DNA from: Leptogorgia sarmentosa
Taxonomy: Eukaryota
DNA: 64,000 bases
Direction: 5' to 3'
Assembly (NCBI GenBank): GCA_964658305.1
Contig: OZ210885.1
Location: forward strand, 24,800,001 to 24,864,000
Part shown: piece after piece, positions 1 to 32,889 of the stretch
How positions within the stretch are numbered: the stretch's first letter is position 1
Layout of the letters: every line of letters starts with the position of its first letter
Notes under the pieces: generated by a model
The model's input: only the letters and a program-made list of their open reading frames with translations
Database searches by the model: none
What the model was told of the DNA's origin: nothing
Translations under genes and position numbers: made by a program

Positions 1-207
1 AGCTCCATGGAATCCGGTTCAGCATTTGGACAATCTGTTTCTACATTTATGTTTTGAAATGTTGAACCAACAGTACTCCAGAAATGCTGTAAAATATGTT
101 GCAGTACGTTTTTATGGAGTTATATCGGGGACAAAATTCATAACATATATTCGAACGTCGCTTTCGGATGTTGTGGCGTTTCATTTGAGTTTTGGCGAAG
201 CGTTTCA

Positions 208-273
208 CATATTCGAAACACGCGATGTGCATATTCGAAACACGCGAAGTGCATATTCGAAACACGCGAAGTG
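208..273 (+). repeat. 3 x 22-bp tandem repeat inside the TIR (CATATTCGAAACACGCGAWGTG), mirrored in the right TIR
   Basis: Directly visible. A transposase-binding role is inference. Confidence 0.85.
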
Positions 274-513
274 CATAATTCGCAACGCGTGCTTCACATA
301 TTCGTGACACGCGCTTACATACAGACGACGCGACATTTGTTTTTTCACCGAGGCTTTCAAATTGTGTCGGCGCGGCCTGCGTTCATTACGAACAGCGGTT
401 ACCAATTTGTATTTGGGAGTACTCGATTTTGTTGTTAATTTTTAAGGCTTTGCTTTGGAAATTTTAAACCATTTTGTGATAGACTGATAGTCTGATAGTT
501 CACTTTCCGGATC

Positions 514-2009
514 ATGACATCTATGATCAGTGCAGCAACCTCTCCAGAGAATAATTTAAAGCAATACATCACCAGCAGTTTGACAGAGGTTATAAGATTA
601 CTTGAATCAACAGGAAATGATAGAAGTGAGTTTGAATATGCTGTTTATAAAATGGAACAAATTGTTCATATTGGTGTCCGACCAGTCAAGAGCAAGGAGT
701 GTGGGGACGGTCTTTTCCAGAGTTGCTGCTGTGTGACCTCATCGATGCACACAAATTGTTGGATTTGGAATCTGCTTCGCTGAATGTAGCACATTCCCCT
801 ACTGTCTTGAATACTGGATGTGCAGGTCGCCCATCCCTAGACATACCAAAGGAGACAATGAAGTTCTACCTGAATCATGGCTTTTCATTGAGCAAAGTTG
901 CTGAAATTTTAGGTGTGAGTAGAAAAACAATTAGTAGAAGAATTAAACATTTTGATCTATCAGAAGAAATTCCTCGTTACAGTGACATCTTGAATGAAGA
1001 CCTCGATATAACTGTATCAAATATTTATAAAGATTTCCCTAACTGCGGAATACGTCGGATGAAGGGATTCCTGACATCAAGAGGCATACGTGTTCAATGG
1101 CACAGAGTAAGATCGTCTCTGTGGCGAGTCGATCCAGAAGGTGTCCTATTAAGAACCATGCAATTGAATATAGTTAGTCGCCGGCATTATTCAGTACCAG
1201 GCCCTCTCTCTCTATGGCACCTTGATGGTAACCATAAAATTATTCGATGGGGTTTTGTTATCCACGGTTGTGTTGATGGATATTCCCGAAGGATTATGTT
1301 TCTCAAAGCATGTACCAACAATAAGGCAAGCACAGTTTACAAGTATTTTTTGGATGCTGTTGAAACATTTCGTCTTCCTCACAGGGTTAGAGGGGACCAA
1401 GGTGTTGAAAATGTGGATGTGGCTTGGTACATGTTTTCAAATCCAGCTAGAGGGCCTGGAAAAGGGAGCTTTATTGCAGGAAAAAGCTGCCACAATCAAA
1501 GGATTGAGCGGTTCTGGAGGGATCTGTTTCACGGGTGCACTTTCCTTTTTTATCATGTGTTCTGCTACTTAAAAGAAAATGGGCTACTGGATATAAGTAA
1601 TGCAATTCAATTATTTTGCCTTCACTACATCTTTGTGCCAAGAATCAACAGGCATCTGGAACTTTTTCAACAAGGATATGACAATCATTCCATTAGAACA
1701 GAGTCAAATATGACTCCTGTGCAACTATGGGTACTAGGTCTCAGTTCTTCACATAGTACATACATAATGGACAACTTGGAGTTAACAAGTGTGAATGCTT
1801 ATGGTATTGATTTTGATGGACCTTTGCCATCGGCAGGATATAGCAGAGACACATGGAGGGATAATGCAGTGGAAGTTCCCGAGATTCCTTGCCCATTAAG
1901 TGAAGTGCAGCTTCAGCAGCTTCATTCACAGATAAACCCATTAGGTGAATCATCATGTCATGGGATAGACCTATTTATCAGGACAGTTCAAATTATGCAA
2001 GAAGTTTAG
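514..2009 (+). CDS. IS3/IS481-like DDE transposase of element 1, intronless, frameshift near 680-700
   Basis: HTH (SLSKVAEILGVSRKTISRR). Catalytic motifs WHLDGNHK, RVRGDQGVEN, NQRIERFWRD. ORF 514-783 N-terminus resembles the element-3 transposase N-terminus (LTEVIRLLE..YKMEQIV vs [16 protein letters not shown]). Confidence 0.9.
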
Positions 2010-2315
2010 ATATTTTTGAGGTGTGCTGTAACTAACGTGCAGTTTCATTCATATTTAAAAGATAACTGCAGATACCATGAAACCCTACATTTAATGTCTA
2101 TGAAAATAACAACCTTTAATAAGACAACAATTCTGTTCAATAATCAGATCATTGTTTCCTTCAGCTTTTTTGCATGAATCACATTCACACAACAATGTTA
2201 ATATCAATGTTAATACTCATGTCCAATATTAATTCTGTAACATGTGCATGATTATATACATATGAGAAAGTATGTTTGATGTCAATTTTTTTCTATCCGA
2301 AAAGGAAATGTGTAT

Positions 2316-5302
2316 CTATGGATTTGGGAATCCAACCTTTCCATATTTACAAGCAATATCCATTGCCTCAAAAAATTTTGATTTTGAGCTGTGGACGGTT
2401 GGTAGCCGCAAAATTGCTGTGCATGCCGATGCAGTCGGTAGGCTATTCTTATCATCATCATCAAGAAACACGATTTTCAGCCTTTTTGCAAGACCACCAA
2501 ATGGAACAAAAGCCCAACCAGACCAGAATTGCAGGAGTGAACGGCAGCGACTATCACCTGGAAACTCCTGATCTTCTTCCTTATTCATGTAATCAAGTAA
2601 CCACTTGTACGACTGTTCTTCAGCAAAGTTACACGGTTTGACATCCAGAATCATATCTTTGAAGCTTTCTGAATCCAATGGCTTTTTGGCTGTTGCACAG
2701 AATAAGACTTCACAAACTTCTTTATTCTTTGATACAAGTTCAAGGAAACCCAGAGATTTCATACCTTCTTTAAACTCGTTGAGTTCATTTTTTCTTGAGA
2801 CAAGCAACTCGTGATGTATCAAGTGCTGAATTAGATAATCCTTGTTGTTGATAGTAATAACTTGTTCTTTAGGCCACCTAGAGGAATTGATTAGTTGCCA
2901 GAATGCTTCACTGGACTTATTTCCTTCCAAAAGAACATCGATATCTGCACTGGTTTTGCATGACTCCAAGCCAGTGAGTAGATCATGTAATAGAGATGTA
3001 CTTGCATCTAATGGGATAAGATCCTTTTTCATGAGAAATTCAATCTTTTCTTCTGGTGAGCCGACAATGTACTCGTACACATATGGGGCGACAATAGGAA
3101 AACCAACAGAAGCTTTAAGGTAAACAGAATGACTAATAATTGTCCCAGCTATCTGAAATAAAACACCCTTTGTAGCATCTTTGATTGGTATAACATTTTC
3201 TTCTTTTCCTTCAAAAAGCCTCTGCTTTACTTCTTGGAGAGCTAAGGTGAAAAATTCCACTTTCATTGCCCCACCATCCAAGCCATCTTCATTCTTAAAC
3301 GAAACACAAAGATCTTTCTTCAGGATATCAGGTTTCGACAGCATTTTCTTGTAAAATCTTATGATGTCCATCCAGATAGACTCTCTGTCAATTACAAGAC
3401 GTTCGTCATCTGATTGACCTGGAGAATTCTTCCTAATAAATAAATCAACAGCATCCTCCAGCGATTGAATATTACATTGATTCTCCATTATGAAACAAGC
3501 TGCTTCATCCACTGATGCTGACAACAAAGCTGCATCCTCCAATTCAGCTACCTCAACATCAGGAAAAATATCTTTCAGCTCTGTAGACCAAGTTGCTTTT
3601 GAGGGACCTGCCCCATCATCAGACAGTACCACAACCTCTTTACATGTAGGAGAAATGTCTTGATAATCTGTTCCTCTGTGTGTCGCGTTCGTTGTACTTG
3701 TTGATGGTCCTTCATTAATTTGCCCATTTTGACTCCAATACTCATCAACACAATTTGAGTCCTCATCACTACTCTCATTTCCATCAATGTTGACTGGATT
3801 GCATGTTATGTTGTGCATACGAAGATTTGAAATGGGTACCATTTCTTTACATTTCATACATTGAGTGGTAGGTGAAGATGCACTAGAATTCACAAACTTT
3901 TCCAATGACATAGTGCTTTTAATTGGCCTTATGTAGATAAGGGTGCTTGGACCAACCATATCCTTAAGATAGGAAATGCTATACCCATCTGAAGGTATTG
4001 GGATAAGACACAGTGTCCTATTACAACCACCACCCTCAGCTCGCAAGAACTCAAAGGCACCATCTTGAGTTGTGAGCTTTGGATATTCTGTTTCAAGAAC
4101 TTGCTTAACTTTTAAAAATTCAGCTTTTTTGTCTGGAAATACAATTCGCTTTCTTCCCAATCCAGCATCCTTAAGTTTTGCCAATTGCTTCACAGAAGGT
4201 GTAAGACATCTATTCGGGTCTGATAGCAAACAAAAATCATGTGTGTAAGATTTCCTTGGCTGAAAAAAAACTTTAGCCCTTTTGTTTCCACGATTGGGGA
4301 TCGCAAAAGGAGTTCTTTTCCCACCACAACCAAGACTTGGAAATGCTAAACTGGAAAATAATTTAGCATTACGTAAATAATAAGGCAATCTTCAGAATTA
4401 GAAGCTGAGGAAGAGCCAAAGAGCAACAGGTTACACAAGTAGGTTATTTTGAGACGTACCAACTACCCTTTTACTCTATTCAGCCCACAACCTTCATTTA
4501 GCCCCCCCCCCCCCACCCTCCTTAAGAGTCTTCTCAGGCCACTGGAAAGTATAGGGCAGGATGAGAAGAACGTAGCTGTTGGTTTTGATATTACAATATC
4601 AGAAGAGAAAACGTATTTGAAGCACAACTTCTCATTAATGACAATGGTGAAGAACTGAATGTAGTATTATACAAAATGTGCTGATGTTGTTTTATCAATT
4701 CAATATTTATATATGTACTTGATTAGGTGTATTTTAATACAAATTGATACACGTGTTGTGTGAATTGTTATACTTATGGTACCAAATTCAGGTCAAAATT
4801 TATTGAGCCCCACCCACACTCCCTAGCTAGTAAAAGTTTCAAGGGGGAGGGGGGGTTAAATAGAGGAAATACAGTACTGTATAAAATATTATTTGTCAAT
4901 TATAAATGCCAATTGGTTGAAAACCTTATTAAAATATATGTACTCCATATTAAACATGAAGATCAGAATGTTTAAAATTTAACCTCTATAAGACTATAAA
5001 TTCCTCTACTCTATGCATAACACAGAAAAGTAACATTACAGTATACGTTTGATAAAAAAGGCTAATAAATTCATGATTATGATCAACAATGCTTCCCTAA
5101 CGGACAAATCTTTTGACAAAATATTTGTGTACACGGAAATATACCTGAAATCTCGTCTCGCAGTGTCAATGAAACGGTGTCCAGTTTGTTGCGGTTGTGA
5201 AGTTACGGAAGAAACTTTAGGTTGTATGCTTGTAGTTGTACTTTGACTATTTTTTTTTACTATAACGTTTTGAATGGTTCCTTTCTCCGAATTTTCGGCC
5301 AT
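2316..5302 (-). CDS. HECT-domain E3 ubiquitin ligase of element 1 (Ubl-like + UBZ-like + CUE-like + HECT); main exon 2316-~4390, probable first exon 5302-5145
   Basis: HECT start FKNEDGLDGGAMKVEFF and end LPTASACTAILRLP...GF. CMKC..H...C finger. LKDIFPDV..LEDA CUE-like motif. ATG at 5302 with an AG|GTAT donor. The 5' exon structure is uncertain. Confidence 0.85.
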
Positions 5303-5741
5303 ATTTAATGTTGTTGTATTTTATGTTTGCCGATTTTGCCTTTTGGACCACTGTTCGACACTTGCCTCGTGTGTGAAACCGTGGTGAAACCGGAAATGCG
5401 ATAAAAAGCGGCAACAATGAAAGATTCGAATTAAATCAAGTATCACATTGTATTGCATATTATCCGCTGTTCGTAATGAACGCAGGCCGCGCCGACACAA
5501 TTTGAAAGGCTCGGTGAAAAAACAAATGGTCGCGTCGTCTGTATGTAAGCGCATGTCACGAATATGTGAAGCACGCGTTGCGAATTATGCACATCGCGTG
5601 TTTCGAATATGCACTTCGCGTGTTTCGAATATGCACATCGCGTGTTTCGAATGCTTCGCCAAAACTCAAATGAAATGCCACAACATCCGAAAGCGACGTT
5701 CGAATATATGTTATGAATTTTGTCCCCGATATAACTCCATA

Positions 5742-6022
5742 CGTTTTCAGTTGACGAACTCTTACTCAAATCAGCTGTTGTTAAAATATTGTTCCAGGAA
5801 GTGTTCACTATTACAGAATTAAATCTTTCCACCATGAAATTCTTCTCAAGCTCGCTTGCTCGCACATTAACCTGTTTCTTGGGTGATTTTACATTCACAA
5901 AACACCTTTCAAAAAAGCTGGCAACAGAGTCTAACAAGTTTTCAAATTTATGCACATGTGATTCGCCTAAATTTAACAGTTTTAACACAGCAGCCGCAGT
6001 CGTTTGTTCTTCTTTTATAAAG
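5742..6022 (-). pseudogene. Uncharacterised reading frame split by element 1; continues in 1-106
   Basis: Removing element 1 and one TSD gives an open frame ...LSKSSSTENV-LQHILQHFWSTVGSTFQNINVETDCPNAEPDSME. Confidence 0.6.
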
Positions 6023-6378
6023 TTAAAGTGCCTATCGCACTTTTTCGGTTTTTGCATATTCGTATACTTTCGACGGTTCTGAGCAACTTTGCAATTTATC
6101 TTCATAGACAAAAACTTCATCTTCCCCTTGTTTTTCGCGATCAAATTTCGATTTTTACCCCCGCCGCCTAAATGGCTATTACTGGTGACGAATTTTCGCT
6201 GATGACGTCGATAGGGTCGGAAGTAAATTTACATGCCGCGCGGAAAGCTGATATGCTAGTATACAACACAAAGTTACAAACCACGCTTACACATTGAGAG
6301 TTCTACCGTTCTACCAGTGTTCCAAGTCTGTTTTAAGTAAATATATTCGGCTGTGACGACAAAAATTGAGCCACAAGC

Positions 6379-13298: not shown

Positions 13299-14061
13299 GA
13301 TTCCACAGTCCACACAATTCAAGCCAAAATATTCGATAATATATCTATCAGACTGATCACTTCTCGCACAAGGCTGCTTTGTTTACTGTACAACATGGTC
13401 TCATACTCAGAATTACCGATAATCAGTAAGTCAGCATCTCCCTAGAATTACTGATAATCATACATTCTGAAACTATCCCCAGTAATTTATACAGTAGGCG
13501 CAAGCGCAACCGTATCAAAATGGCGGAAGAACAAGGAGCGTTCGAAAATGTCTCTACAGGTAAAAATATTATGAATAATTCATTAGTTTTTACAGTGTTA
13601 TAAAAGTAATTTGCATAAGATGCATATTGAAAGATTAATAACGAAGGTCTTTTTTATATATCGCCACGAAAGGCAATTTAACATGTAATACTAAATGAGT
13701 GGATGTACTGTCACATTAAATGTGTGTTGTTGTGTATTGATTTTTTTACGCATTACACCGGTTTGGACGGTATGGGGCGCCGTTTGTTTCAATAATACTT
13801 CTTTCAAATATATAATACTTGTTTCAATATATAATACTTCATTTCATATTCATACAACTTTGTGTTGAATATATAAAGGTTGTTATCCGAAAATATAAAC
13901 AATATCTCACTAAATAGAGTTCACAGATCACATAATAGAACTTTGTTTCAAATATACAACTCTGTTCCGAATATAAAACTTAGTTTTAAATATATAAAAC
14001 TTGTTGTGCAATACCTAATTAGTTACATGAGGCACAACATGAAGTACTGACGCTCGTAAAC

Positions 14062-16804: not shown

Positions 16805-17315
16805 ATATTTAGAACTCATAGAAGAGGACACATATAAAACATTTAAATTTACATTTATTTGCATGTTGCGTTACATTGTTTTTGTTTTGTTAGTCACTTA
16901 ATCATTGACTTGGTTTTCGCAGTGATACACATGATTTGTTATCTTAAAATGGCATTGAAGATAGCAATATCATTTCTCACAGACTTTCACAATCACTCTA
17001 TATGCAGGCAATTAATACAGGTGCTGCCTGGCAATTAATTGACTAATTGTAAATATGGTCACTGTGCTAAATATTTGTACATGTAGCATTAATGCAGAAC
17101 TGTTATCTACAGTGAAAAACACGACTGTTCATGTATTATATGTACATATGTTCACAATTAATTTATTTAAAAAATTGTGGAAACACCCTGTTAGTTTAAT
17201 TGATTTCATAACAACTCTGAGCTCTCAGCCCATCAGATTTTCAGGCCATTAATTAAACTAACAAGGTGTTTCTACAAATTGTTATAATTAATTTTATTAT
17301 CACCATGTAAACATC

Positions 17316-19036
17316 CTAAAATACTATCCCAAAATTTTGGTCATCTTCAAGGGGATTAATGGTGAGTAGCAATACAGCCTCCTGTTCATCAGTGAGTTGT
17401 ATTGATGATCGAGGCACTGTAACATGATTGTTTGTCTGCAGTTCAGTGAGTGGCCCATAATCATCAACTCCATAGTTAACAGAATCGACAGCTGCACTTT
17501 CTAATGCTAAACGCACAGCACGTTGGCTTGAATTAGCTTGGCTGTAAAAACCTTCAATCCATATTTGGTAAGGTGTCTTGTTCTGCTCTGAGCTGAGTGG
17601 GTGGTTATTCCACTGTAAAACAAATTCTTCAATGGATCGTCGGATTCGTGGCAAGTATACAAAGTGTAGTGCATACATATGGACTTCATTCAAAGGATCT
17701 AAGATTCCCTGTGATTCCATAAAATAGAATAGTCGATGATATATACCAACAAAGGATTGACGTGCATCACGCCAGAGGCGTTCAATTCTTTGGTTATGTA
17801 CGGACAAACCTGTTAGTACAGGATTGGATATTGTTCCATGATGACCGAGCAACCACTTTGCAACTTCTATGTTTTCAGTTCCATGATCACATCTAAGGCG
17901 ATGTGGCACATGAAACTGATTTATAGCATTAGCAAATAAACCCATGACTGTGTTTGCTTCATTGTTTGTGTGGCAACCAAGATATACAATTGTACGTGAA
18001 AAACCATCAATTCCACCGTGAATTACTATGCGCCAGCGTATGAGTTTGTGATTCCATCAATATGCCTATTTTTGAAAACAAAACAATGTTGGGAAACAAT
18101 GAAGTATATAATTGAGATATTTCAACAAGGACATTGTTCAACAATGGTAATTTAATCCAGAAAACACAGGTAGGGGTGTCAGGATTAACATTCCTAATTT
18201 TCAAAAAAATGTGTCAGCACTGTGTCCAAGGGGTAAATTTTTAAAAGATCTTTTGAGGATGTGGAATGAAATGGTCCAATTGATACATACCACAAACTGT
18301 TTGGGCCAGGGACTCTATAAACTCGTCTCTTTATTCTAAGCCGCCTTCTACATTCAGTTCCAGCAGGATCAACTCGCAACATTGACTCTCTTATTCGCCT
18401 CCGTTGGATCCGCAAACCCCGACCAAGGAGCGCACCTCTCATCATAACTTGGCCACAATTGGGCGATTGCTCAACTATCCCCTGGACCACACCGTCCAGT
18501 TCTGAATCAGATATATCATTGTAACCATGCTCATATCCAATCTCAAGCTCTTCCCGGCGCCTGTACAAAGTAGCTCTGGAAATACCTATCAGTTGGGCTA
18601 TTTTGGTCCAAGAGAAACCAATCTTTCTCAGACCTTCAATTTGCTCCTTGGGTACATGGAACTTTGGTCTTCCTCTCTGTCTATCCTCATTAGTTTCCCT
18701 ATCCTCATTAGTTTCCCTTTGGCACTGAAAGTGTATTTCCGTTTCTCGCTCCTGAATTGTTTGAAATACTTCGGCATATCGGTTTTTAACTTCTTCATAG
18801 CCAGCAAGAAGTTCTTGTAGCTTTTGCACTATTTCTTGGGAAATATTATCTTCTCGAGAATTAAACATAGAAAGGAAAATGATAATCCAGGTACATATTC
18901 CCTCAGAAGAAGTCAGCATATTATCGGCTTCATTTAACTCTTGTGTTAGAAAATTCGATTTAAGTTGTTGATAAAGCGGGGGTAATTGCAAAAGGAATTG
19001 AATAAATTCGTCTAACACAACCTGTTCGTCTGCCAT
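17316..19036 (-). pseudogene. IS3-like transposase of element 2, 2 exons (19036-18291, 18065-17316), 1-bp deletion after the first catalytic Asp
   Basis: GRPKFHVP, HTH WTKIAQLIGISRATLYRR, W|HIDG(N)HKLIRW with GGAAT where GGAAAT is needed, LRCDHGTEN, NQRIERLWRD. Confidence 0.85.
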
Positions 19037-19468
19037 GATGTTTTTCTTTTTTCCTGCGCGCCACTGAGCTAACGTGTACTTCATGTTGTGCCTCATGTAA
19101 CTAATTAGGTATTGCGCAACAAGTTTTATATATTTAAAACCAAGTTTTATATTCGGAACAGAGTTTTATATTTGAAACAAAGTTCTATTATGCGATCTGT
19201 GATCTCTGTTTAGTGAGATATTGTTTATATTTTCGGATAAGTTTTATAAATTTTCCAACAACCTTTATATATTCAACACAAAGTTGTATAAATATGAAAT
19301 GAAGTATTATATATTGAAACAAGTATTATATATTTGAAAGAAGTATTATTGAAACAAACGGCGCCCCATACACGTGTGACTCGCTGTTTACGAGACGAGA
19401 AGACAAAAGGTATGAATTATTCATGGTTTATTATCAGCAAGGTCGAAAGAACATTAATATAACATGTA

Positions 19469-19625
19469 CAGGTGTCCCAGAAAAAAGTCACCTCTATAGA
19501 AATCAGCTCTTTTGTTGTCAAACGTGCGTTGTTATGCCTTTGAGAATATAATTGATGATTCACGATAACACGAGGTTAACAACAAAACAGGATTTCTATA
19601 GAGGTCACTTTTGGGGGACACCCTG
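19469..19625. mobile_element. Small Tc1/mariner-type MITE
   Basis: TA|CAGGTGTCCC...AAAAGTCACCTCTATAGAAATC versus GATTTCTATAGAGGTCACTTTT...GACACCCTG|TA. Confidence 0.7.
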
Positions 19626-20114
19626 TATAGGAAACTCACTCGGTGGAGTCGAAGGGGGGTTCCTATTCCCATTTCCAGCCCAAATTTTGACTAAATCCCA
19701 TCGTCCCAGGGCACAAATCTCATCATCTCAGTAGTTGCCTTGCTCAAATCGTAATCCCATTCCAATTTTCTATTGTTTTTTGGCCAATGATTCACAGTCC
19801 AGGTGTATGAAATCCCATTTTCCCAGCCAAAAATAAGCAAATCCCAGATCCCATTTTACCCCTTCAGGACCATCATAATTGTAACGGAGGGTCTATCATT
19901 GGAGCTAGCTGGCAGCTCTTCAAGTCATCAACACTCAACATGACAAGTTTTTAATGGTGTTGTATAATTTAAACAGGGTGCACTGAAAAACTCCGATGAT
20001 CTTACATTGTGTTTAAGTACTCCCTTAGTAAATAGTGTAATGACAGACAATTTTATAAAAAATCTCTGATCAATGCCTAACTTATCTAACTATGTTGTGT
20101 AGACTGTAGTCAAG

Positions 20115-23100
20115 ATGAGTCAGGACCCAAAAGATTTGCTCAGAGCTTGCGCACAGAGTTTAATGAATGCAGTGAGCAATCTTGAAAACAGGACATCTCC
20201 ACAAGCGTCCAGACAAGAAGCTAGTAGGGAAGTAGCCATTTCAAATTCAGTGACAGAGTCAAACAGTTCACAACAACAACTGCAGGCAAATCGGTCAACA
20301 AATGCACCAAGTCCCATAGAAGAACATCGAAATCTATTTGGTTATCGACCACCTTCTGTGACCAGGAACAGCAATAGACAACCTGCTTCAAAACGTAGAA
20401 TGGTTACAACATCAACTGGAGAACGTGTATCCATTCCAGTCCGTAATACATGGTCAAGAACTTTCGTTTGCTTACCAAATAAGAATGCCACAACTGTTCC
20501 ATCTGCCTCACAAAAGATAAACATGGCTCTTGCAGGATTGGATGAAAGAACAATTTGCTTCACAAAAGGAGGAAACAGTGAACATGTTCATAAGAAGATC
20601 TTGGAAGCATTTCCTATGCTTAGTGATGTGGGTGGTTACCACATTTTGCGAACTGGGGAACGTGGTAATCGGCAGTTGTTAGCCCTCACTATTCCTCCAG
20701 GTGGATATACAGTGTCTTTTCTGAAATCTACCATAGCATCAGCAAAGGGTTACATACGACCTTATCAGAAAGACATTGTTATAGACAACAATGCAGTCTT
20801 GAGCCAAGGTCAAACTCAGGTTTGCAATTTCTTAATTGTTCATTTTCAGTTACCATACTTGCAAACCTTTTTTTGTATGATATACATCTCAGTATGCTCT
20901 ATTACATGGTAAATTTTGTGAGCCCCTATATTTACAATTCCTCACTTGATACATGTCTTGGCTTTAGATTCCGTCTAGTCCAAAAGTGGCATGTGTAAAT
21001 TGCCATGCATCAGTTGCAATGGACATGTTACAATCACACGATGAAGTTTGTCGAGGAGGGAGTTCAACCTCAGGACAACGCACCACTGATGAAAACAGGT
21101 AATATAATGTTTGTAAAAAAAGATTCAACATGTTTTTTGTATCTACTTTGCAAATGAAATATCACTGTTGTGTTAAATATGTTGCTTGCAGCCACTCAGT
21201 GACCACTGTAGATACTGGCACTGAATTGGCCAATCAGCAATTAGCATAGAACATTTCGAAGATGTTCAAGGTGGAACCAGATCAATAATTTTGCAACTAT
21301 TTTTGGTTACAAACTTACTAGTGCCATTCTTGTATCTTTGAAGGGCTATATTACATCATTTCATGTTACCATGACCATGAACTCATAGATAGGGAGTAAA
21401 ACCCTTACAAAACCACCACCAGCAATGTGGTATGGAAGGGAATGCACAGAGACAGAAACAGTGCTAATAACGGTTCTTCTGTAGTGACGTTGATCTTGTG
21501 GAAGCAACGGAAGAGAATTTTGAAGAAACAGGTAACACAGTTTTTTTTTGTAATGGTTTGAAATGTTTTTGTGTGCTAGCACACATGCGCAGCTAGAAGC
21601 CAAATGTGGATGTTTGGATGTCCACTGCCAGGCGCGCTGGGTGTTCATGAAAACCCGATCGTAGGTTACTAACGGAAATATATAATATATCTATCACTGA
21701 TCAGTAATTTTCATCAGGCTAATATATTATCGGTAATATCAAAATTCAATCGGAACATGTGTTCTAAATCTAGCAGCGTTTATCAGTCGATTCGATCGAC
21801 CTTTGAAATGATCATGCAAGCATTTCAGCGTTGTTTCAGAATATTTATATATTACAAAAACGTTGCATTCTTGAATCCTTGTTGCATGATTGCAAAATGC
21901 ACAAAAAAATGAAATTTTACAATGGTTATGTTCTGTGGTAGCTCAAAATAAACTTCGTGGTGTCAACCAACATGGCACCCAAGTAGGTTATGATGTAACG
22001 TGCAAACAATGAATGCTCGTGCCGGCACAGGCTAGCCACATGTACGCGCTATGCGTACCTATTTTCACCAGAATGGCTATACCCCAGTATGTTATTCCTT
22101 AACTATAGGTTTCGGTCAACTGAAGAACATTTTTCCAAACATGGATTCCAACGCAATAAGGCAAGCACTTGCAAGTGCTAATGGATCCATCGATTTGGCG
22201 ACTGAAACTCTGCTAGATAATGACGGTAAATTTATATGGCATTGTTTTCCCTTCATAACTATTCTTAGGGAACGCAAACTGTGTTGCAGCGTGTTATATT
22301 TTTTCTTTTGTTCTATGGTTTAATCCATTAATTAATGTCGTTGGTATTTTTGCATTCTTACACAGTGCTGAATGATGAGATTGAAATTTTATCGACGGTC
22401 GGAATTGGTGCTGCTTGCAAAAGTATCACAGTGCTAAAGGGCGACAAATTGGACGTAGATGCGTTCAGACAACAAGCTGTTGATGAAACATTGCAGAGGC
22501 AACGTTTTTTTGTATCAAGAGAGGATGGTATCGAGGAGCTGAAGAAGGATATTCTGAGCCATTACAAAGATAGCCAGTGCAAGTTGAAAGCTAAACCTCG
22601 TGTAAGATTTGAGGGTGAAGAAGGTGTGGGGAGTGGCCCCGTTCGGGAGTTCCTGTTGTGTGCCATGCTAATTCCCCAGGACGGCATTGGTGGAACCAGA
22701 AGACCAGTTATATTTTTTGAAGGTGAAGAAGACCATCTTGTTCCAATTCATGACCAAACATTGAGGTGTACTGGTTCATTCAAGGCAATCGGGCGTATCA
22801 TTGGTCATTCTTTTATTCATGGTGGTCCGGTGTTGTATGGCCTCTCCCCAGCGGTGAAGCGTTACTGGGCGTTAACAGCTGAAGCAGGTGACCGAGATCC
22901 AAATTGTGAAAGTCTAACTGGCAGTATTAGTATCTCCGATTTGCCCGATGTCGATCTAAGACAACGTATTTCACAGGTACAGTAATGTATGATTTATCAG
23001 ATTTAATAAAGAAACATGCATTGAAGTTTTTACTCTTGTACAAACATTTTTTTAATTATATTCTACGTAGATAGGTATTTCATGCTATTTTGATGAATTG

Positions 23101-24181
23101 TTTCAACTGCATGAAAAGAACAAAAGTATTTTGCCTCTTTTTCCCCGAACAAAGTACTCAGCAAAAAGTGGCGCGGTTTGTTACTGTAATATTTTCACTT
23201 AATGTGTTAACCCTGAGTATATACCATTCCAGCTTGAAAGTCTCGAACCTCATGTAGAGTTGCCATCGGAACTTAACGATGCGATCACACCGTACCTTTT
23301 CGAGTCTGGACTTGACATCAGTCGTTTGAACTCCGACAGGCGGCTGGCCATTCAAGGTCTTCTAATATATCAAGTAATCGACAAGAGAAAGCGAGAACTA
23401 GATGAAATAGCTAAGGGTGAGTAATTATAACTGTTTGGTAATTCAGCTATAGTTGAGTTACTTGAGTAGTTCTCAGAATTCTCAATTTATTTACCATTTT
23501 GCAAGGCATGAATGAAGTGGGATTACATGATTTTATTGGAAAATGTACACCTGAAGTTTTGGATTCCATATTTCCCACGTCTGCGAAAAGGCGAGTCACT
23601 TTTGAGCAAGTGGAAAACGCCATGATTTTCGTGGAGACGGAAGGGCACGAGCAAACTATCAGCTACTGGTATAATTATTTGCACAAGCTAGCCAAATATG
23701 ATACAGGTAATGTGATATTGTGGCAAACATCTAAAACATTAAAAAGCACAAACTGTAACAATTTTGTTTAATCGGTAACAAGCTTGAACATTATCTTATA
23801 TCATGGTATGCTGCCCCAGCCACATTTTACATATTTGCCTCTTCCAGCTGGACGTATTTCCCCTTTTCTGTTGTATTCTATAATCATAACCATTTAATTA
23901 TAACCATTGGAAAAATGGAAACAAATCTAAATTTCTTGCTTATATTTCTAGGCAAACCTTCTCTTACCGACCTGTCTTGTTTCTGGACAGCCAGTAATCA
24001 GCTTCCATCGCGGGGTGGAACGATACAGGTGAAGTTCAACGATGGCGACAGCAAGTTGCCTCTAGCGGAAACATGTTTTTCGATTATCACGCTCCCCACA
24101 GTCCATAAATCATTTGAAGACTTTTGTAAATCCATGGACACTGCGCTTCTTTATGGTTCTATGGGGATTGATATTCCGTGA
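20115..24181 (+). CDS. HECT E3 ligase of element 3, multi-exon (20115-20819, 20969-21098, possible small exon ~21192-21270, 22110-22225, 22365-22976, 23233-23416, 23506-23706, 23952-24181)
   Basis: Ubl-like WSRTFVCLP...GYIRP. Zn finger VACVNCHASVAMDMLQSHDEVC. CUE LKNIFPNMDSNAIRQALASANGSIDLATETLL. HECT FEGEEGVGSGPVREF...LPLAETCFSIITLP. Confidence 0.82.
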
Positions 24182-24335
24182 TGCAGTAGTGTTAGATAAG
24201 AGATACTAAATTTAATTAATGTTTTGTTAGTGTTCTTCCACAAACTGATTCGTAAGCACCATGCAGGAAAACGTTGCAACTAATGTATTTTACAATTTAT
24301 GGGCACGGGTTGTAAGTGTTTTATTTATTGGAACA

Positions 24336-26202
24336 CTAAACTGTGTGAGTGTTGACATATTCCATTGTCTCCAAATATATGTCGATACCGTAGGAATCGC
24401 TGTTCCTCAGTGGGTCGACAGTGCGAGCAAGTTCATCAACATGTTCTCTGGGCAATGGACAAGCTATTTCTGGCACGTTCACGGCATCAACATCAAAATC
24501 CTCGGCTGGAACAGGGCTTTCCCAATCTATTCCATATTGCTCAAAGTCGTCCTGTAAAATATGAGATATTACTTTTAGTTTGAGAGTCTAGTAGATTGTT
24601 TGTCGGGCGATGGAATTGTGGATTAAGAAATGCATGAAATCTCATTTCATTTCTGTGATGGCTCGGTATGATCTGATAATGCATAGTATTACTCCCTATA
24701 TGTTACATTCCAACACCCCAAATGATAAACATGTGAGGTCAGAATGCAAATAATGTTTTATCAAGGTTCTAATTTCATTTATATGCATTGTGCATTTTCT
24801 CACCGGTGTGGCAGGCTCGTAAGCGTCACGTATTGCGGTATGCTGAGAGTTTCTTAACTGAAGAAGACCCTGAATATAAAGCTGCATTGGACTTCTATTC
24901 CCAGCAGTTCTGATTTTATGCTGAATGTAGCCTTGCCTCCAGCTTTCTATATGTCGGTTAATTCTCGGAATGTATACATAATGCAACGCGAAAAGGTGGG
25001 ACGGATTTGATGAATCCAGTATACCATTATCCTCCAAATGGTAGAATAAATTGTAGTAAATGTAGGTAACACCTTCGAACAGATCTCGCCATAACCTCTC
25101 AATCTGTTGATTATGGACACTTCTGCCTGTAATCATACTTCCCCGGCCTGGGCCTCGCAATGGGTGCTGCAGCATGTAGAGCGAAACTGCGGTATTTTCC
25201 CCTCCCTTATCCGAGCGGACACGAGATGGCAATCCATACGCGTTTACTGCATCCAGGAAACAGTTCAAAACGATTTCAGCACAGTTTCTTCCATTGCATT
25301 TCAAAAAGACTGGGATTCTGGTGTATCCGTCAATTCCGCCATGTATTACAAGTCTCCATCTAAAAAATAAACAATTACAAACTTTCATGTCACTCACAGG
25401 AAATGATCAGATGGTAAATAGCCTTTTATATACCTTTAACATTGCAGACGTGACCTCACATACAAATCAATATTTTGGTTCTGTTTATTTTGTACAGCTG
25501 CATGATGTTGATTTCCTACCTTATTAGTTTGTGGTTGCCATCTATGTGCCATAACGCCAGGGGACCTGAGACACGATATTGCCTCCTTGGCGTTAATCTC
25601 AACCACCTTACAGCAACCCCTTGTGGATCAATCCTCTGCAGTGTTTGTCGTACTCGCATTTGAGATGGCCTCAGCCCAGCGACAGCAAGTTGGGAAATTA
25701 CCCTGCGATATCCAGCATTGGGAAATTCTTGTAAAATTTCCCTTACTTTATTATCAAGCTCTTCGTCTGACAAAGGGGGTGAGTATTGGCTTTGTGACAG
25801 CCCGTAAGTACGCATTCTGCGAGATATTGTACTTTGAGATACACCCAATGCTTTTGCAATGTCAGGAACTGAAAACTGATAGCTGAGGAAGTAATTTAGC
25901 TGTTCACGACTAATATCAAAACAGGGGCGTCCTCGCTGACCAGACTGAAAAATGTCTACTGTGTATGAGTTTTCAGTTTGAAGCTCTTCTACTTGCTGCA
26001 AATAGTGCATTGCCAGTGTGACATCATGCTGAATTGCATCATCAACAAGGCTAATGTCGCATAAGCGTATAATATGAGAAGCTAATTGTTCAAGCCTAAA
26101 AATAATGGCATCAAGCTGATCATTGTCTGGGTTCTCCAGCTGCCTCAAAATGTCTAACAAGGCCCCCCGTAACTGCACGCTCAAAGATTGTACTTCACTC
26201 AT
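24336..26202 (-). CDS. IS3-like transposase of element 3, 3 exons (26202-25520, 25359-24804, 24551-24336), apparently intact
   Basis: [46 protein letters not shown]-terminal YGIDW...[14 protein letters not shown]. Splice phases are consistent. Confidence 0.9.
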
Positions 26203-26417
26203 TGAAACATCATATCCAAATATCCAAAAATATAAAAAATTGTCACAGCTGAAAGAGAATAATTTATTCTGCATTTAGAATAGCAGATGTTTTCAGGTAC
26301 TGTATGCTGTTCTATGGGGGGGGGGGTGTCCCCTATTCCGCTATGTGCATTTTTTGTCCTAAAGTCGGCATGTCAAGTACACATGGTTCAGTAGATTTTG
26401 TCCACAAATAGGTCAAG

Positions 26418-26571
26418 CAGAGGCCGCGGAAGATCGATAATTGGGGGGGCACATATTCATATATTCGTGTTGTGCATTACTGATTTCCTTTGAAATCAAT
26501 TGTTTTCAAGGTCTTTGAACACGAATATATGAATATGTGCCCCCCCAATTATCGATCTTCCGCGGCCCCTG
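26418..26571. mobile_element. hAT-type palindromic MITE
   Basis: Arms of ~55 bp, CAGAGGCCGCGGAAGATCG...CGATCTTCCGCGGCCCCTG. 8-bp TSD aGGTCAAG / tGGTCAAG (7/8 match). Confidence 0.75.
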
Positions 26572-26838
26572 TGGTCAAGCACTATAAAGAATCAATTTTA
26601 CAAATAATAAACTATTGAGCAGAACATTCCCACGCCACACCCCCAAACGAGGGAGATAGGTAACGATAGAAACGGGAGAACGAAGGGAGTGGGAGTCGAG
26701 AGCGTGATTGTGTAAAACTTTAAGAGATAAACGATTAAATATTTGAAATTTACGAATTGGTAGTGTGCAATACAACTCGCCAGCACACTTTGGTGCCGTG
26801 ACCAGGATTTATCTGGAGATTTAAGCAATACTTTCGAT

Positions 26839-28402
26839 ATGACAGACGAGCGGAGCGAGGAAGGTTTACAACTTGAAATCAACAAGGAGATAGAAAAGCT
26901 GAAATATTACGTTGGAAATGCCGACGAGACGATTAAGGAAGGGGATTTTCTGGAGATCAAGATCATAAACGATCGAGCAGCAACGATTTTGGATAAGATA
27001 AATACTCTTGTAGCGAATGTTCAAGAGTTAAAAATCGATCGCGGGGAAACGGCAAGAAACGTGCGAGTTGCGACAGTGGAAAAAGGAAATTAAGGAAGTT
27101 CATAAGCCGCTAGTGGAAAACATGGGAAAATTATCGGAAGCTTACAACGAGAAACAAAGACAAACAAACGAGGAAATCGAGCGAAAGAAGCAACAGCTGG
27201 AATGGGAGAAAGACGAACGTCGTCGACGAGAAATACGTGAGCGAGAAAGAGAAATGTGGGAGGAAAAATTCAACGCAGAACTGCGAATGACCGAGAGAAG
27301 GATAGAGATGGAAACACAGGCGAAGGCCAGTTTAGCAAAACTACCACGTTTGAAGATTACACCATTTAAAGGCACAGCGGCCGATTGGGTCCGGTTCGAG
27401 AACATGTTCCTGACTCAAGTGGATAGCAGACCGATATCAGAGGAAGAAAAATTCGGATACTTGTTAGAGTCCGTGGTACCCAAGGTAAGAGACAGAATTT
27501 CTAATCTTAAACCAAGCTCGGTGGGGTACAAAATGGCATGGGACCGTTTGAAAAGGGAGTATGGGGAAACAAGAGTGGTGATCAGTGCACATCTAGATGA
27601 GATTATCAATCTGCCAACCATCAAAGGGACAAATACGGAAAAAATTCAGGAGTTTTACGACAAACTAAGCAACAATTTTGATGCTCTGCAGACACTGGGA
27701 GAGGGGGACAAGTTACAAGGGTTTGTTATGAACACTTTAAATAAACTTCCACATGTGAAGCCCGATTTAGTAAGGGTGGATGACAGTTGGGAAGGGTGGA
27801 AAATGGAAACCCTTGTCAGTAACTTACAAGCATGGTTAAAGAGAAACAACCTCAAATGGAATACACACGTTCATCAGACTGTTCGCAAAGCCTGTAAAAA
27901 GCTATTCCACCTACGAGAATGCCGTAGATCCAATCTCCCTATAGAAATTGGACTCACTACATATATATCGAAAATAAGACCTATCCTGGAATATGCATCC
28001 CCGGTATGGGGAGGCCTTCCCAAATACTTAGAAGATGAAATCGAACAAATACAAACTAGAAGTATGAAGATCATTGGCCTGCCGAAGAACCACCTACCTA
28101 CCCTCAGGGAAAGAAGAGTTGAAGCAACTAAGAGAGAGCTTTTGAAAATTCAGTCTGACACTAATCACCCATGTCGTGTATTTTTACCTAGTCGAAAGAT
28201 TCATAACTATAATCTTAGAAGTAAACCTAAATTTAACAAAACAATATCAAATACGGATAGACACAAGAACTCGTTCATTCCTAGGGCCTGTTCACTAACT
28301 GATTGATGTAATTTTTTAACAATGTACTATATCCAAATATTTTTAAATGTAAATCCATTGTATTTTTTGTCTAAAGATGGATAATAAAACCTACTACTAC
28401 TA

Positions 28403-28435
<33 letters not shown>

Positions 28436-31400
28436 GTGAGGATAGTCCCATCCAGAAGAAAGAAAGGAACTGGTTTGGTGGTGATGGGAAACCCAAACCA
28501 AAGTGCATATATTGTAGTGGGGAACACTGGAGTGATGAGTGTAAAACAGTAGTTTCACAAGATCAGAGAAAGAAGTTCTTTGTTGACAAGAACTTATGTT
28601 TCAATTGTGGGCGGACTGGACACAGAGGGTCTCAGTGCCGCAGTCGAGGTTGCTTCAAGTGCGGTTCGAAGCATCATACCAGTATATGTGATAAAAGGAA
28701 AGATTCAAAATCTGGGATGGGAGGAGTACTCAATGGTTATAGCAGGTCTCATGATGGAAATTCGTTGCCAGCCATTATTCCAGTTAACGTTCAAGGGGAA
28801 GTCATGTGGGCATACCTAGACACTGGTTCAGCAAGGAACTTTGTTTCTCGGGATGCAGCAAAAATGTTGAAGTTAAAGCCAAAACGCCATGAGCCAAGGG
28901 AGATCGTTACCTTAAATGGGGTCACAAAGCAGTCCATGCCAATTTACGAAATAGAAATCAATGCTCTTGATGGGAAAGCAAAAGAAAGAATCGAGGTTAC
29001 TGGAGCAAAACTACCAGACTTTACGACAGTCAAAAGACCTGATATCCGCGAGCTGAAATTGAAGTATGAACATACAAAGGACAAAACATTTTATTTTACG
29101 GAGAATGGGAGATGTCAAATCCATCTCATTATTGGAGACAAAACATTTAGTCGAATACGGACAGAAACCGTTTGCAAAGGTGAGCAGGGAGACCCGATCA
29201 TCGAAGATACTAGCTTCGGATGGGTAATTCATGGAGGTGATGACTACACGGATGATCAGTGCATGTTCGCTAGAGAGACAAACAATTGTGAGAGACTGTA
29301 CAGTTTAGACGTCTTAGGCGTGGAAGATCGAGGAGACACAAACAGTGAAGTCCTAAACGAGTTTAAGGAGAACATTTCGAGGAAGGAAGATGGAAGATAC
29401 GAGGTCAGATTTCCATGGATTTCGGGAAAGGGCCTGTCAGAGACAAACGAGCAGCAGAGCAGGAAACGGTTACAATATGTGAATAGGAAATTAGATAAAA
29501 CACCCGAGTTAAAGCGAGAGTATGATAGCATTATAAACGAACAGTTAACCGAGGGAGTGGTAGAAGTAGCCCCAGAGATACCAACTGGAGACCGAATCTA
29601 TGACATGCCGCACAAACCAGTTGTACGTCAGAACGCAACCACGACGAAGGTACGAATGGTATTCGATGCAAGTGCAAAACCTAGTGCATCCACTGAAAGT
29701 ATAAACGATTGTATGTATACTGGTCCACCTTTGCAGCCACATCTATGGGACATACTGGTACGAGCACGGATGATGCAGAATCTTCTACTAGCAGACATCG
29801 AGAAAGCTTTTTTGCAGGTCCAAATTAAAGAGGAAGATCGCGATTCCTTTAGATTCCTATACAATGTGAATGGCATGGAAAGCCATCTACGATTTACACG
29901 CGTACCGTTTGGAGCGGAGGCCAGTCCTTTTATATTGGGTGCAACATTGCAACATCACTTCGAAAACCAACCTCCAGAACATCAAGATACCGTGGATGCT
30001 TTAAAGAAAAATACCTATGTGGACAATCTAATGTACGGTGGCGAGAATCTCGAAAGCTTGATGAAGTTCAAAGAGGAAAGCAGCGTGATTTTGGAGAGCG
30101 GAAGGTTTCCTGTTCACAAATGGGAAAGCAATGTCGAGTCGTTAGAGAGCAGCGGCATGCCAAACCCTACGAAATTCCTAGGACATACCTGGGACAAACG
30201 TGAGGAAACCCTGGAGATAACAGTCCCAAACTACGACGGGAAAGAAGCAGTCACCAAAAGAAATATCCTCAGCCACATAGGAAGCATATACGACCCGCTT
30301 GGAATAATTTCTCCCACCCTAGCTGAGGGAAAACGAATCTACCGCGACGTGTGCGACGAGAAGAAAAATGATTGTCAGTGACAATGAAGAAAAATGTCAG
30401 TGGTTGAAATGGACTAGACAGTTGAGGAACGTTAAGATACCTCGGAGCATAAACAAGAATGTGAGTAATGCGAAGGCGGTTCATCTCCATGTGTTTGCGG
30501 ACGCAAGCACCTTGGCTTGTTGTTCGGTAGCTATTGCTGTCGTGGAAGGTGATACGGGCGTAGTCGAGGGCCTCTTAGCTTCAAAGTCACGAATATCAAA
30601 ACGGGAAACATCGATCCCAAGACTCGAACTTGTCAGCGGTCATATGGCCACAAATATGGCAAGAAATTTGTGTAACGCTCTACAGGGATGGCCTATCAAG
30701 TCAGTTACGATATGGATGGACAGCCATGTTGCTCTATTTTGGATAAACAACCCCGGCAAAGCTTGGAAGGTGTTTGTAGCAAACAGAGTGAAGAAAATAG
30801 CAGAAACAACCGACGGATTGAACGTCATTTGGAAATACTGTCCGACATAAATGAACTTGGCTGACCTAGGCAGTAGGGGTGCGACCATAGATAAGCTCGA
30901 GAACCAAGAGTGGTTTACAGGACCAAGGTGGCAGTTGAATGAAAGCCAGTGGCCTGATCAACCTGAACTGGTGAGGAACAAAGAGACGAATTGCGAGTAT
31001 AAGGCTACAGAGCCTAATTTCTTCTCTGAGGAGCACGCAATGGATGAATGGGATGATCTACTCGACCGAAGTTCGTATTGGCGAACTTTACGTGTCACAG
31101 CGTGGGGTTTAAGGTTCGTCAGTAACTGTCGTTCCAAAGCAACGAAGGTCAAGCGAAAGAAAGGTCCACTGAATACGGACGAAATCATGAGCGCCAGAAA
31201 TAAATGGGTGAGGAGAGTGCAAAGGAATGAGCAACCAATCATGCAGGCGCCAGGATGGAACTTGGAAAAGGAGCCTGAGACGGAGATACTCAGATGCGAA
31301 GGACGAGTAACGAATTATAATCCAATATATCTTGGAGAGGGAACGTTCACGAATAAGCTTATTGTTCATGTTCATCATCAGATTATGCATCTCGGCGTTT

Positions 31401-32578
31401 CCAACACCATGGCAGCTCTTCGAGAAACGTGGTGGATCCCTAGGTTGCGTGAGAAAGTGAAGGAAGTCATCAGCAAGTGTAACGTTTGTAAATTGTACTC
31501 GGCGAAGCCTTTCGAAGCCCAAACTACTGCGAAATTGCCAAGGTTTAGAACCGAAGGCGACCGGCCATTTGAAGTGACGGGCGTGGACTTCGCGGGTCCT
31601 TTACAGTATAGAATTGCCAAGAACGAAAACGGAAAATGCTACGTGTTAATATTTACATGCGCGGCTTCAAGAGCAGTCCACTTAGAAGTGACGAAAGACC
31701 AAACGGCAGAAGGGTTTCAGAGGAAACTCAACTCCTTCGTTACCCGCAGGACTAGACCACGTATGATAGTATCGGACAACGCGCAAACGTTCAAAGTCAC
31801 GGCGGAGTGGGTGAAGATCATAAGGAAGAGCGAGAAAATGCAGAATCATCTTGCTAGCGAAGAAATCACATGGAAATTCAATCTTGCAAGATCCCCATGG
31901 TGGGGAGGGTTTTACGAGAGACTCATTAAGGAAATCAAGAAAACTTTGTATAAAACTCTGGGGAAATCTCACCTGTCATTCGAGGGGATGGAGCAAGTTG
32001 TGATGGACATTGAAAAGAATTTGAACAACCGTCCGTTGACGTACGTCGAAAGTGAGACAGAGTCGGAGGTGCTGACTCCTAATGTTATTATGTGGGAAGG
32101 AAACGCGTACCCACTCGAAGAAATCGAAGCACACACGGACGAGTTGACAGGTATGAGGAAGAGGTTGATTAACGCGAAGCAACATGCATGGCAACGTTGG
32201 AAGAAGGAATACATTCACGCTTTAATGGAAACACATCGATCAAAGACGAAAGGCGGAGGACGGATACCAGAGGTCGGAGACATACTCTTGATCGTGGGTG
32301 ATGAGAAAAATCGGGGCGAGTGGAAGAAAGGTCGAGTACTGCGCTTGGTAAAGGGAAAGGACGGTGTTGTACGGGGTGTCGTTCTTTGCCATAACGGTCG
32401 GAGAATCGAACGGCCGTTACAACTAGTTTGTCCATTGGAACTTCAAGTCGGAAAACCTGTCGAGGAAGAAGAGCAGAGTAAGGAGGTGGCTGAGAACGGA
32501 AGAGTACGGAGAAACGCAGCCAAACGGGCAGAACAACAGATACGGACACAGTTTGAAGAAGAAGACAATGAACTGTAG
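26839..32578 (+). pseudogene. BEL/Pao gag-pol polyprotein; frameshifts at ~27065 and ~30365, TAA at 30848-30850, LINE insertion in gag
   Basis: Gag LPRLKITPFKG. Zn knuckles CIYC/CFNC/CFKC at ~28505-28690. Protease YLDTGS. RT ADIEKAF, PFG, YVDN. RNase H HVFADAS/IPRLEL. Integrase GVDFAGP, SDNA, WWGGFYE. Confidence 0.9.
27850..28433 (+). mobile_element. 5'-truncated non-LTR retrotransposon (CR1/L2-group-like RT 3' end)
   Basis: LKWNTHV...YISKIRPILEYASPVW...RHKNSFIP, then AATAAA, (CTA)n and ~29 A. Removal restores gag AAG AGA AAC AA|G TGT GAG. Confidence 0.85.
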
Positions 32579-32889
32579 ATACGTATAGTTACGTTCATAT
32601 TGTTTGTTAATGTTTAGGGTAAAAATTGACTTTAATTTTTAGGGGAGTGTGAGCAGAACATTCCCACGCCACACCCCCAAACGAGGGAGATAGGTAACGA
32701 TAGAAACGGGAGAACGAAGGGAGTGGGAGTCGAGAGCGTGATTGTGTAAAACTTTAAGAGATAAACAATTAAATATTTGAAATTTACGAATTGGTAGTGT
32801 GCAATACAACTCGCCAGCACACTATGAATAATTCATACCTTTTGTCTTCTCGTCTCGTAAACAGCGAGTCACACGTGCACCACTAGTAC

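Follow-up and report, generated by a model that had tools for sequence, protein, structure and literature searches.

The window, by which we mean the whole 64,000-nucleotide stretch of Leptogorgia sarmentosa DNA analysed here, is in its entirety a nest of transposons. Three of its elements, E1, E2 and E3 (given without strand), each carry within TIRs one DDE transposase gene and one convergent HECT ligase gene, and their TIR sequences differ. This bears out the original observation of three such units, with the two genes matching Pfam profiles PF24764 and PF00632, respectively.

E1, an IS3EU-type DNA transposon at 113..5741, ends in TATGG..CCATA, and its TIRs are 94.8% identical over ~290 bp. 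As had been claimed, it is flanked by a perfect 6-bp TSD, CGTTTT, at 107-112 and 5742-5747; the chance of such a match is ~3e-4 for one element, and within the window E1 alone among the three has one. No contig join over the E1 empty site appeared among the matches listed. The transposase T1 (517..2009, + strand) combines an HTH with a PF24764 DDE core, has D237/D294/E331 in an X-bridged model and, compared with three full-length relatives, is frameshifted near 682. The HECT gene H1 (2316..5302, − strand; predicted exons 5302-5145 and 4350-2316) is open and encodes 730 aa comprising a ubiquitin-like domain, a C2HC finger, a CUE/UBA-like domain and a HECT domain with the motif PTASAC, which aligns with the catalytic PTSHTC of E6AP. 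Its HECT domain matches PF00632 at E 1.6e-18 and the HECT fold in Foldseek at E 3e-14, and compares with UBE3C at a VIA Z of 19.8 (rmsd 3.7 over 283). Residues 45-160 match the ubiquitin-like fold, with many Ubl rows and a middling Z of 6.4 to the TBK1 ULD (rmsd 2.7 over 81), and UBA/CUE rows matched at residues 257-318.

E2 (13771..19370) has the same TATGG..CCATA ends and TIRs that are 91.6% identical over ~280 bp. Its right end adjoins E3, and its flanks, GGACGG on the left and CACGTG on the right, form no TSD. The HECT gene H2 (14062..16804, + strand) is open over five predicted GT-AG exons and encodes 765 aa with a Ubl-type N-domain, a UBZ-like finger and a HECT domain with PKASTC, whose C-lobe exon matches PF00632 at E 1e-9; unlike in H1 and H3, no CUE domain was seen. 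The transposase T2 (17316..19036, − strand, two predicted exons) is frameshifted at 18053 in the reference copy, and the frameshift is absent from contigs of three of the four sequencing runs. Alternative splicing was considered as a way to restore the frame, and no option rescued it.

E3 spans 19369..32879, the left end being approximate, and measures ~7.3 kb once a nested retroelement is subtracted. Its TIR of ~65 bp starts T(A/G)CACGTG; the two copies can be followed for 57 bp before the retroelement and for another ~10 bp after it. The left end reads TACACGTG, sharing its TA with the end of E2, and the right end reads TGCACGTG (reverse complement). A start farther in, at a TAT at 19411, was discarded, since the 40 bp on its outer side continue as inverted copies. 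A TSD was sought for E3, and for E2 and E3 as a composite, and was found for neither. The HECT gene H3 (20115..24181, + strand) is open over eight predicted GT-AG exons and encodes 741 aa with a Ubl domain, a UBZ-like finger, a CUE domain (PF02845, E 6e-9) and a HECT domain with PLAETC, whose C-lobe exon matches PF00632 at E 8e-6. The transposase T3 (24336..26202, − strand; three predicted exons, 484 aa, D221/D278/E315) is open; it reads HNQQIER in the reference copy, with Q replacing the R of its relatives' HNQRIER motif, and HNQRIER in contigs from three runs. The retroelement, a BEL/Pao LTR retrotransposon on the + strand (26616..32823, right end approximate), lies within the right TIR of E3 between 5-bp duplications of ACTAT. 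A copy of E3 lacking it exists: in run X1, one contig passes directly from 26610 to 32821.

The three ligases share one layout and a common N-domain at only 21-29% identity to one another: ubiquitin-like domain, C2HC zinc finger, CUE (except in H2) and HECT. A catalytic Cys, 33-34 aa from the C-terminus, was rightly predicted for all three, but the predicted N-lobe motif fails in H3, where it is degenerate (FEGEEGVGSG, without the D). Single-sequence fold prediction of the N-domain gave a pLDDT of 40, and its structure-atlas matches were unnamed eukaryotic clusters only. T1-T3 match PF24764 at E 1e-69 to 6e-75 and keep a D/D/E triad with 34-36 residue spacing; two of the three are broken by frameshifts. 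Searched against the PDB, the transposase profile matched HTH domains only. Fourteen small variants (6 synonymous, 8 not), including 10 in the coding parts of H2, H3, T2 and T3, are too few to be informative.

The assignment to IS3EU held up. Like described IS3EU and GingerRoot elements (PMC10045372, PMC6839031), those in the window have TA..TA termini with a 6-bp TSD (in E1), long TIRs, and an HTH plus DDE core without HHCC, and by eye T1-T3 resemble the IS3EU-1_CVi, IS3EU-1_SK and IS3EU-3_DR motifs, including RVRSDxGxEN and HNQRIERLW (PMC10045372 supplement). The expected termini are present in E1 and E2 but not in E3, whose short, TAC..GCA-type ends are nearer to the TG..CA ends that have been described in some GingerRoot elements. 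What sets E1-E3 apart from the described elements is a complete Ubl-finger-CUE-HECT second gene. The term "HECT" does not appear in the main text of either paper, and our search, confined to published papers, found no report of a HECT-IS3EU pairing. A further transposase in the window, T4, is of the other, "YDKL"-like type, as is the rust-fungus element IS3EU-1_PGra.

The pairing recurs well beyond this genome. Among 80 metagenome loci found with transposase patterns, a convergent HECT gene accompanied the transposase in 30 loci and 21 of 29 informative clusters (each with at least 1.5 kb downstream of the transposase) when profiles excluded the locus sequences, and in 32 loci and 23 clusters with the library profile. 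By contrast, no locus had a downstream HECT on the same strand, and reversed-sequence controls gave no HECT matches. Pfam HECT was found in 14 clusters, 10 of them above the gathering score. A downstream HECT was absent in 6 of the 29 clusters; the L012 transposase instead faces an AAA+ ATPase, and a TIR-bounded 4.2-kb family (L034/L052, with the L052 transposase broken) gave no HECT match. HECT also occurs upstream, in either orientation, in L015, L032, L038, L045 and L050. TIRs with a matching 6-bp TSD enclose both genes in four of the five loci with two flanks (L016, L026, L040 and L073), extending the module to four other assemblies, and TAYGG..CCRTA-type ends occur in six relatives. The 6-bp TSD typical of IS3EU is present in these four and in E1, and not in E2, E3 or L053. 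Scans of viral contigs with HECT and transposase, and of prokaryote genomes with HECT, found no relatives. Three longest-contig sizes (4392, 5151 and 10225) were common to the HECT and transposase match lists, which is circumstantial only. The module is demonstrated for the "NHKL" sub-lineage of IS3EU alone, the only one that the scan patterns covered.

The ligases themselves appear to have been kept rather than captured by chance, as originally proposed. The catalytic Cys is retained, with constant C-terminal spacing, in 32 of 32 covered rows, in all 29 rows of alignment A1, and in 145 of 151 rows of the broader HECT tree alignment. At 41-54% protein identity, synonymous sites are saturated. 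The dN/dS comparison called for earlier was favourable in eight diverged pairs (pN 0.32-0.45 vs. pS 0.74-0.88) and mixed in close pairs (0.07, 0.28, 0.60 and 1.37, on few changes). The HECT-transposase pair is found in relatives of these elements across many other genomes, and has therefore probably been a functional component of the transposon lineage for a long time.

Still, the claim that the ligase is the transposase's own is not supported if it is taken to mean strict co-descent. Agreement between the two trees exceeds chance (p~0.0003), yet they are not identical: an AU test on the HECT alignment rejects the transposase topology, and 14 conflicts remain among splits with at least 95 support. 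One HECT clade with 100% support (L001, L024, L035, L043 and L048) stands next to transposases of several clades. The HECT rows used here are fragmentary (157-346 of 346 columns), and the apparent swaps involve L001, L035, L048 and L061, where both genes have not been demonstrated within one TIR pair. The ligase and transposase lineages are linked but partly reshuffled, and elements appear to have exchanged their ligases.

We put at roughly 45% the reading that the second gene of IS3EU elements is a predicted active HECT ligase that tags a host chromatin protein or a silencing or repair protein. Its parts differ in strength: the ligase is very probably a conserved functional second gene, it is probably active as an enzyme, and a host protein as its substrate is a tentative choice, preferred over the transposase because one ligase can apparently stand in for another alongside transposases that are only distantly related. 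Traveling inside the element alongside the transposase, the ligase would mark its target for removal, allowing the element to transpose. The N-terminal ubiquitin-like domain would pick the substrate, given that host-named relatives swap in Neuralized or FN3; the C2HC finger and CUE would bind ubiquitin and so recruit the ligase to chromatin that carries it, for example at excision breaks; and the HECT Cys would take ubiquitin from a host E2.

It is less probable that the ligase ubiquitinates its own transposase, either stripping the post-integration complex off DNA through p97/proteasome, by analogy with the remodelling of MuA complexes by ClpX, or capping activity. The constant convergent placement beside a single transposase lineage and the significant co-phylogenetic signal are consistent with this, as is the presence at the same position elsewhere of other enzymes that modify or remodel proteins: the AAA+ ATPase of L012 and, in rust-fungus IS3EU, an alpha-kinase encoded opposite the transposase (PMC12730594). 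However, the rejection of co-descent and the supported HECT clade beside several transposase clades argue against it. The rust-fungus elements also resemble ours in that accessory genes, there TET/JBP, are exchanged between transposons, but they carry a kinase and a dioxygenase rather than a ligase (PMC12730594).

More doubtful is the view that the protein hardly works as a ligase and serves instead as a scaffold or decoy that binds ubiquitin, which would tether the transposition complex to ubiquitinated chromatin or soak up E2s. Three ubiquitin-related modules precede the HECT domain, N-lobe motifs are degenerate, and the related G2E3 HECT is reported as non-functional (PMC3673628), but the Cys and its spacing are conserved, and fish NHRE3 promotes K48 ubiquitination with ligase-dependent effects in cells (PMC13623101). 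Very unlikely, and already largely refuted, is that the HECT genes are repeatedly captured host genes or mere neighbors without a role for the element: GingerRoot elements do capture gene fragments (PMC6839031), the trees differ, the window is transposon-rich and some HECT genes lie upstream, yet these are whole open genes of one divergent layout with a downstream strand bias of 32 to 0, TIRs and TSDs around both genes in five independent elements, dS at saturation, and a long branch parting them from HERC domains (one outgroup family only).

Returning to the ligase as an element gene, the original suggestion that "G2E3-like" annotations may be transposon genes gained one named example and one fish protein, and true G2E3 was not reached. 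In the HECT tree, P0391, which a database names "G2/M phase-specific E3-like", falls together with the ligase of E3, and a fish Neuralized+HECT protein (P0409), which from its architecture may be the NHRE3 orthologue, nests within element-linked ligases (support 0.95). Host-named relatives bear Neuralized or FN3 where element ligases bear the ubiquitin-like domain. Class IV HECTs (G2E3, GL-Metazoa, GL-Bikonta) are likewise highly divergent with varied N-termini, and are treated as fast-evolving host families, with transposons unmentioned in the available text (PMC3673628, PMC2837046). G2E3 itself differs in having N-terminal PHD/RING-like fingers, whereas H1-H3 start with a ubiquitin-like domain followed by just one finger, of the C2HC type; such fingers occurred in none of the 56 long matches scanned (at least 580 aa, from 146 new representatives), and the protein search did not reach a PHD-bearing G2E3. 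NHRE3 is likewise a "G2E3-like" HECT; it is a host gene with an NHR domain acting on ISG15, and the available text of its paper does not mention a transposon link (PMC13623101). The IS3EU lineage is likely the source of some host "G2E3-like" genes. A broader idea, which we consider improbable as it stands, is that the whole animal class is an IS3EU gene family, a swapped ligase required for transposition and repeatedly domesticated by N-terminus replacement, with Neuralized in fish NHRE3, FN3 in hemichordates and possibly PHD fingers in vertebrate G2E3.

IS3EU is barely studied, and its second protein had no described function in the literature searched; a conserved E3 ligase gives that protein a testable one, and a single genome supplies three divergent open ligase genes, H1-H3. 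If this reading is true, IS3EU would be a rare DNA transposon that brings its own ubiquitin-writing enzyme, odd and fast-evolving animal "G2E3-like" HECT annotations would be re-explained as mobile-element genes, and host ligases such as fish NHRE3 may have an element origin.

Each of the three IS3EU-type elements in the window (E1, E2, and E3) encloses a transposase gene (PF24764) and a convergent HECT ligase gene (PF00632), as assigned by Pfam. By comparing the window with itself, we located terminal inverted repeats (TIRs) at 113-401/5461-5741 in E1 (94.8% identical), 13770-14047/19076-19371 in E2 (91.6% identical), and 19371-19427/32821-32877 in E3. Together, these results bore out the original prediction of three units with differing TIRs, each pairing a transposase with a convergent HECT gene. 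The 6-bp target-site duplication (TSD) noted for E1 was also confirmed, with CGTTTT flanking both ends. The proposed likeness to IS3EU held, with exceptions: E1 and E2 have TATGG..CCATA termini and E1 has its TSD, but a duplication is absent from the flanks of E2, and E3 likewise lacks one. If the last TA of E2 is common to both elements, the left end of E3 reads TACACGTG, and its right end, as the reverse complement, reads TGCACGTG. A BEL/Pao element interrupts the right arm of E3, with the TIR match extending for ~10 bp past the insertion. Because a contig of sequencing run X1 joins 26610 to 32821, E3 also occurs without this insertion. E2 and E3 abut exactly at 19369-19371, possibly sharing a TA dinucleotide and with a TSD for neither; adjacent deletion and end-targeting are candidate causes.

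Exon models predicted from GT-AG sites gave open ligase genes of 730 aa in E1 (H1, two predicted exons), 765 aa in E2 (H2, five), and 741 aa in E3 (H3, eight). Pairwise identity was 21-29% among these ligases and 37-44% among the transposases (T1-T3), and the closest named relatives were cnidarian, which points to a probable cnidarian host. All three transposases contain D, D, and E, the last two 34-36 residues apart. T3 is open, reading HNQQIER in the window vs. HNQRIER in three runs. T1 has a frameshift near 682 relative to three relatives, with the same reading in a contig of X1, possibly the source sample, and T2 has one at 18053, where contigs of runs X1, X4, and X8 have one extra base and X5 matches the window.

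The window also holds other mobile sequences. A THAP-domain element (PF05485, ~6230-13379) lies between E1 and E2; contigs show a junction between its ends on opposite strands, and a 1.47-kb high-copy insertion within it (10390-11857) is missing from one contig. At 33286-35232, a DDE_Tnp_4 transposase faces a Myb/SANT-like gene in a Harbinger-type pair. A reverse transcriptase ORF (44531-46315) sits between the arms of a 1.65-kb near-perfect inverted repeat (42914-48241), in a region holding hAT-like ORFs (DUF4371 at 48618-50120), and a DIRS-like retroelement occupies 52956-58033, where the minus strand encodes both RT and tyrosine recombinase and the repeats are inverted and internal complementary ones. 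The stretch 61616-63852 ends with T4 (62638-63852; 404 aa, open), a fourth transposase resembling IS3EU that is 22-27% identical to T1-T3 and has the other motif type; ahead of it on the same strand is a gene of several exons encoding a CxC3 (KDZ-associated) domain, and the window stops short of any downstream partner gene.

The element ligases share a layout of ubiquitin-like domain (Ubl), C2HC finger, CUE, and HECT with a catalytic Cys, except that no CUE was seen in H2. The predicted structure of H1 (mean pLDDT 74) matches HECT structures, with residues 257-318 resembling UBA/CUE and residues 45-160 resembling ubiquitin-like folds at a middling best Z of 6.4 (rmsd 2.7 over 81), on which many Ubl rows concur. 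In H3, Pfam detected a CUE (E 6e-9); its UBZ matches, in H2 and H3, were weak, and a C-x2-C..H-x3-C finger is common to all three. An N-domain profile of the H1 family matches H3 at 1e-16, and iterated search from the H2 N-domain reached H1 at 2e-12, with an accompanying profile-profile score that is partly circular. As anticipated, the catalytic Cys is kept: all 29 rows of the ligase alignment have it, it aligns with the E6AP Cys, and it is present in all 32 covered rows (of 36) in the survey of metagenome loci.

The transposase-HECT pairing is real and recurrent. One metagenome scan with the transposase alignment as query, its patterns restricted to IS3EU transposases of the "NHKL" type, matched at least 599 stretches and at least 513 relatives, of which the best 80 loci were taken (62 clusters at ≥85% nucleotide identity). 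Profiles from the H1 family, H2, and H3 found a downstream HECT on the opposite strand in 30 of these 80 and on the same strand in none. By cluster, 21 of the 29 with ≥1.5 kb downstream were positive, and upstream matches (E≤0.001) occurred in 2 of the 21 with ≥1 kb upstream. A library-protein profile gave 32/80 loci and 23/29 clusters, with upstream matches in five loci; reversed-ORF controls produced no matches with either profile set. Pfam, applied to 146 of 158 opposite-strand ORFs (12 were omitted, likewise the 121 same-strand ORFs), identified HECT in 14 clusters, 10 of them above gathering score. Among 24 loci inspected, both genes lay within TIRs in L016, L026, L029, L040, L053, L073, L054, and L057, and matching 6-bp TSDs were present in four of the five having both flanks (L016, L026, L040, and L073, but not L053).

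No HECT match was found in L013, L027, L066, the TIR-bounded 4.2-kb family L034/L052, or within 3 kb in L003, which clustered with HECT-positive L001; L045 had HECT upstream only. In L012 (2665-4475), an AAA+ ATPase gene (PF00004 and AAA_lid_6) replaces HECT opposite an NHKL-type IS3EU transposase, and TIRs were not found inside the contig. HECT-like genes lie upstream of the transposase in variable orientation in AT-rich L015, L032, and L045, and AT-rich L050 has a Ubl-CUE-HECT gene (88-1863) divergent to the transposase. A weak Ulp1-type protease match (L038:14180-15085, E 0.0013) lies near an IS3EU-HECT pair.

An element-ligase profile returned 5,111 matches among 1.84 billion representatives at E≤1e-10, a count that takes in ordinary HECTs as well and should not be read as the size of a family. 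Neuralized was joined to HECT in one fish protein among 56 long matches, and FN3 in three proteins (two hemichordate by name plus a third); one bears the label "G2/M phase-specific E3-like." When 151 HECT domains were placed in a FastTree rooted on a HERC protein, the one outgroup family and thus too little to test monophyly, these proteins nest among element-linked ligases, which a long branch separates from both HERC domains. The idea that "G2E3-like" host names mark transposon genes gained one named example, the "G2/M phase-specific E3-like" protein, along with the nested fish Neuralized-HECT protein, but the PHD fingers of G2E3 occurred in none of the 56 long matches. Database labels on other element proteins include SMURF2-like, TOM1, leucine-rich repeat, and an evidently wrong toxin name for P0146, a fish protein in which Pfam finds a transposase domain.

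Eight diverged ligase pairs had pN of 0.32-0.45 and pS of 0.74-0.88, giving no dN/dS ratio because dS was saturated. Four close pairs had dN/dS of 0.07, 0.28, 0.60, and 1.37, and a fifth was identical. Across 23 transposase-ligase pairs (five clusters excluded for <150 columns), the two trees agreed beyond chance, with 4 of 20 splits in common vs. 0.27 expected (p 0.0003), which among kin is no proof of co-evolution; Mantel rho was 0.23 (p 0.006) and 0.33 (p 0.0005). However, full congruence failed, as the HECT alignment rejected the transposase topology (delta logL 479; AU run of only 2000 replicates). Well-supported splits conflicted in 14 cases, and in L001 the transposase is sister to T1 while the ligase groups with that of L048. 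Judging from these trees, ligases were likely swapped between elements, likely rather than proven because the pairs lack TIR verification and rows are fragmentary.

HECT-bearing IS3EU was not found in print. Literature covered in part, including PMC10045372, PMC12730594, PMC11934779, PMC6839031, bioRxiv 10.1101/2021.09.26.461848, PMC2837046, PMC3673628, and PMC13623101, yielded no report of IS3EU with HECT, a transposon-encoded HECT ubiquitin ligase, or "G2E3-like" genes with transposons, and "HECT" was absent from the portion of the PMC12730594 supplement covered. Repbase Reports and the Kojima 2019 review lay outside this search, and it is rather doubtful that either already labels the second ORF as HECT.

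While enclosure in the elements, domain layout, and the Cys are observed, we infer that the ligase would be active on some substrate and benefit the element. Other transposons bear SUMO-protease and OTU cargo, and ClpX acts on MuA; both offer analogies for the ligase. Its substrate could be the element's own transposase, which we consider less likely than a host protein. Because the ligase seems exchangeable, we favor a host substrate, at a probability of roughly 0.45: the ligase may act on a host chromatin, silencing, or repair protein.
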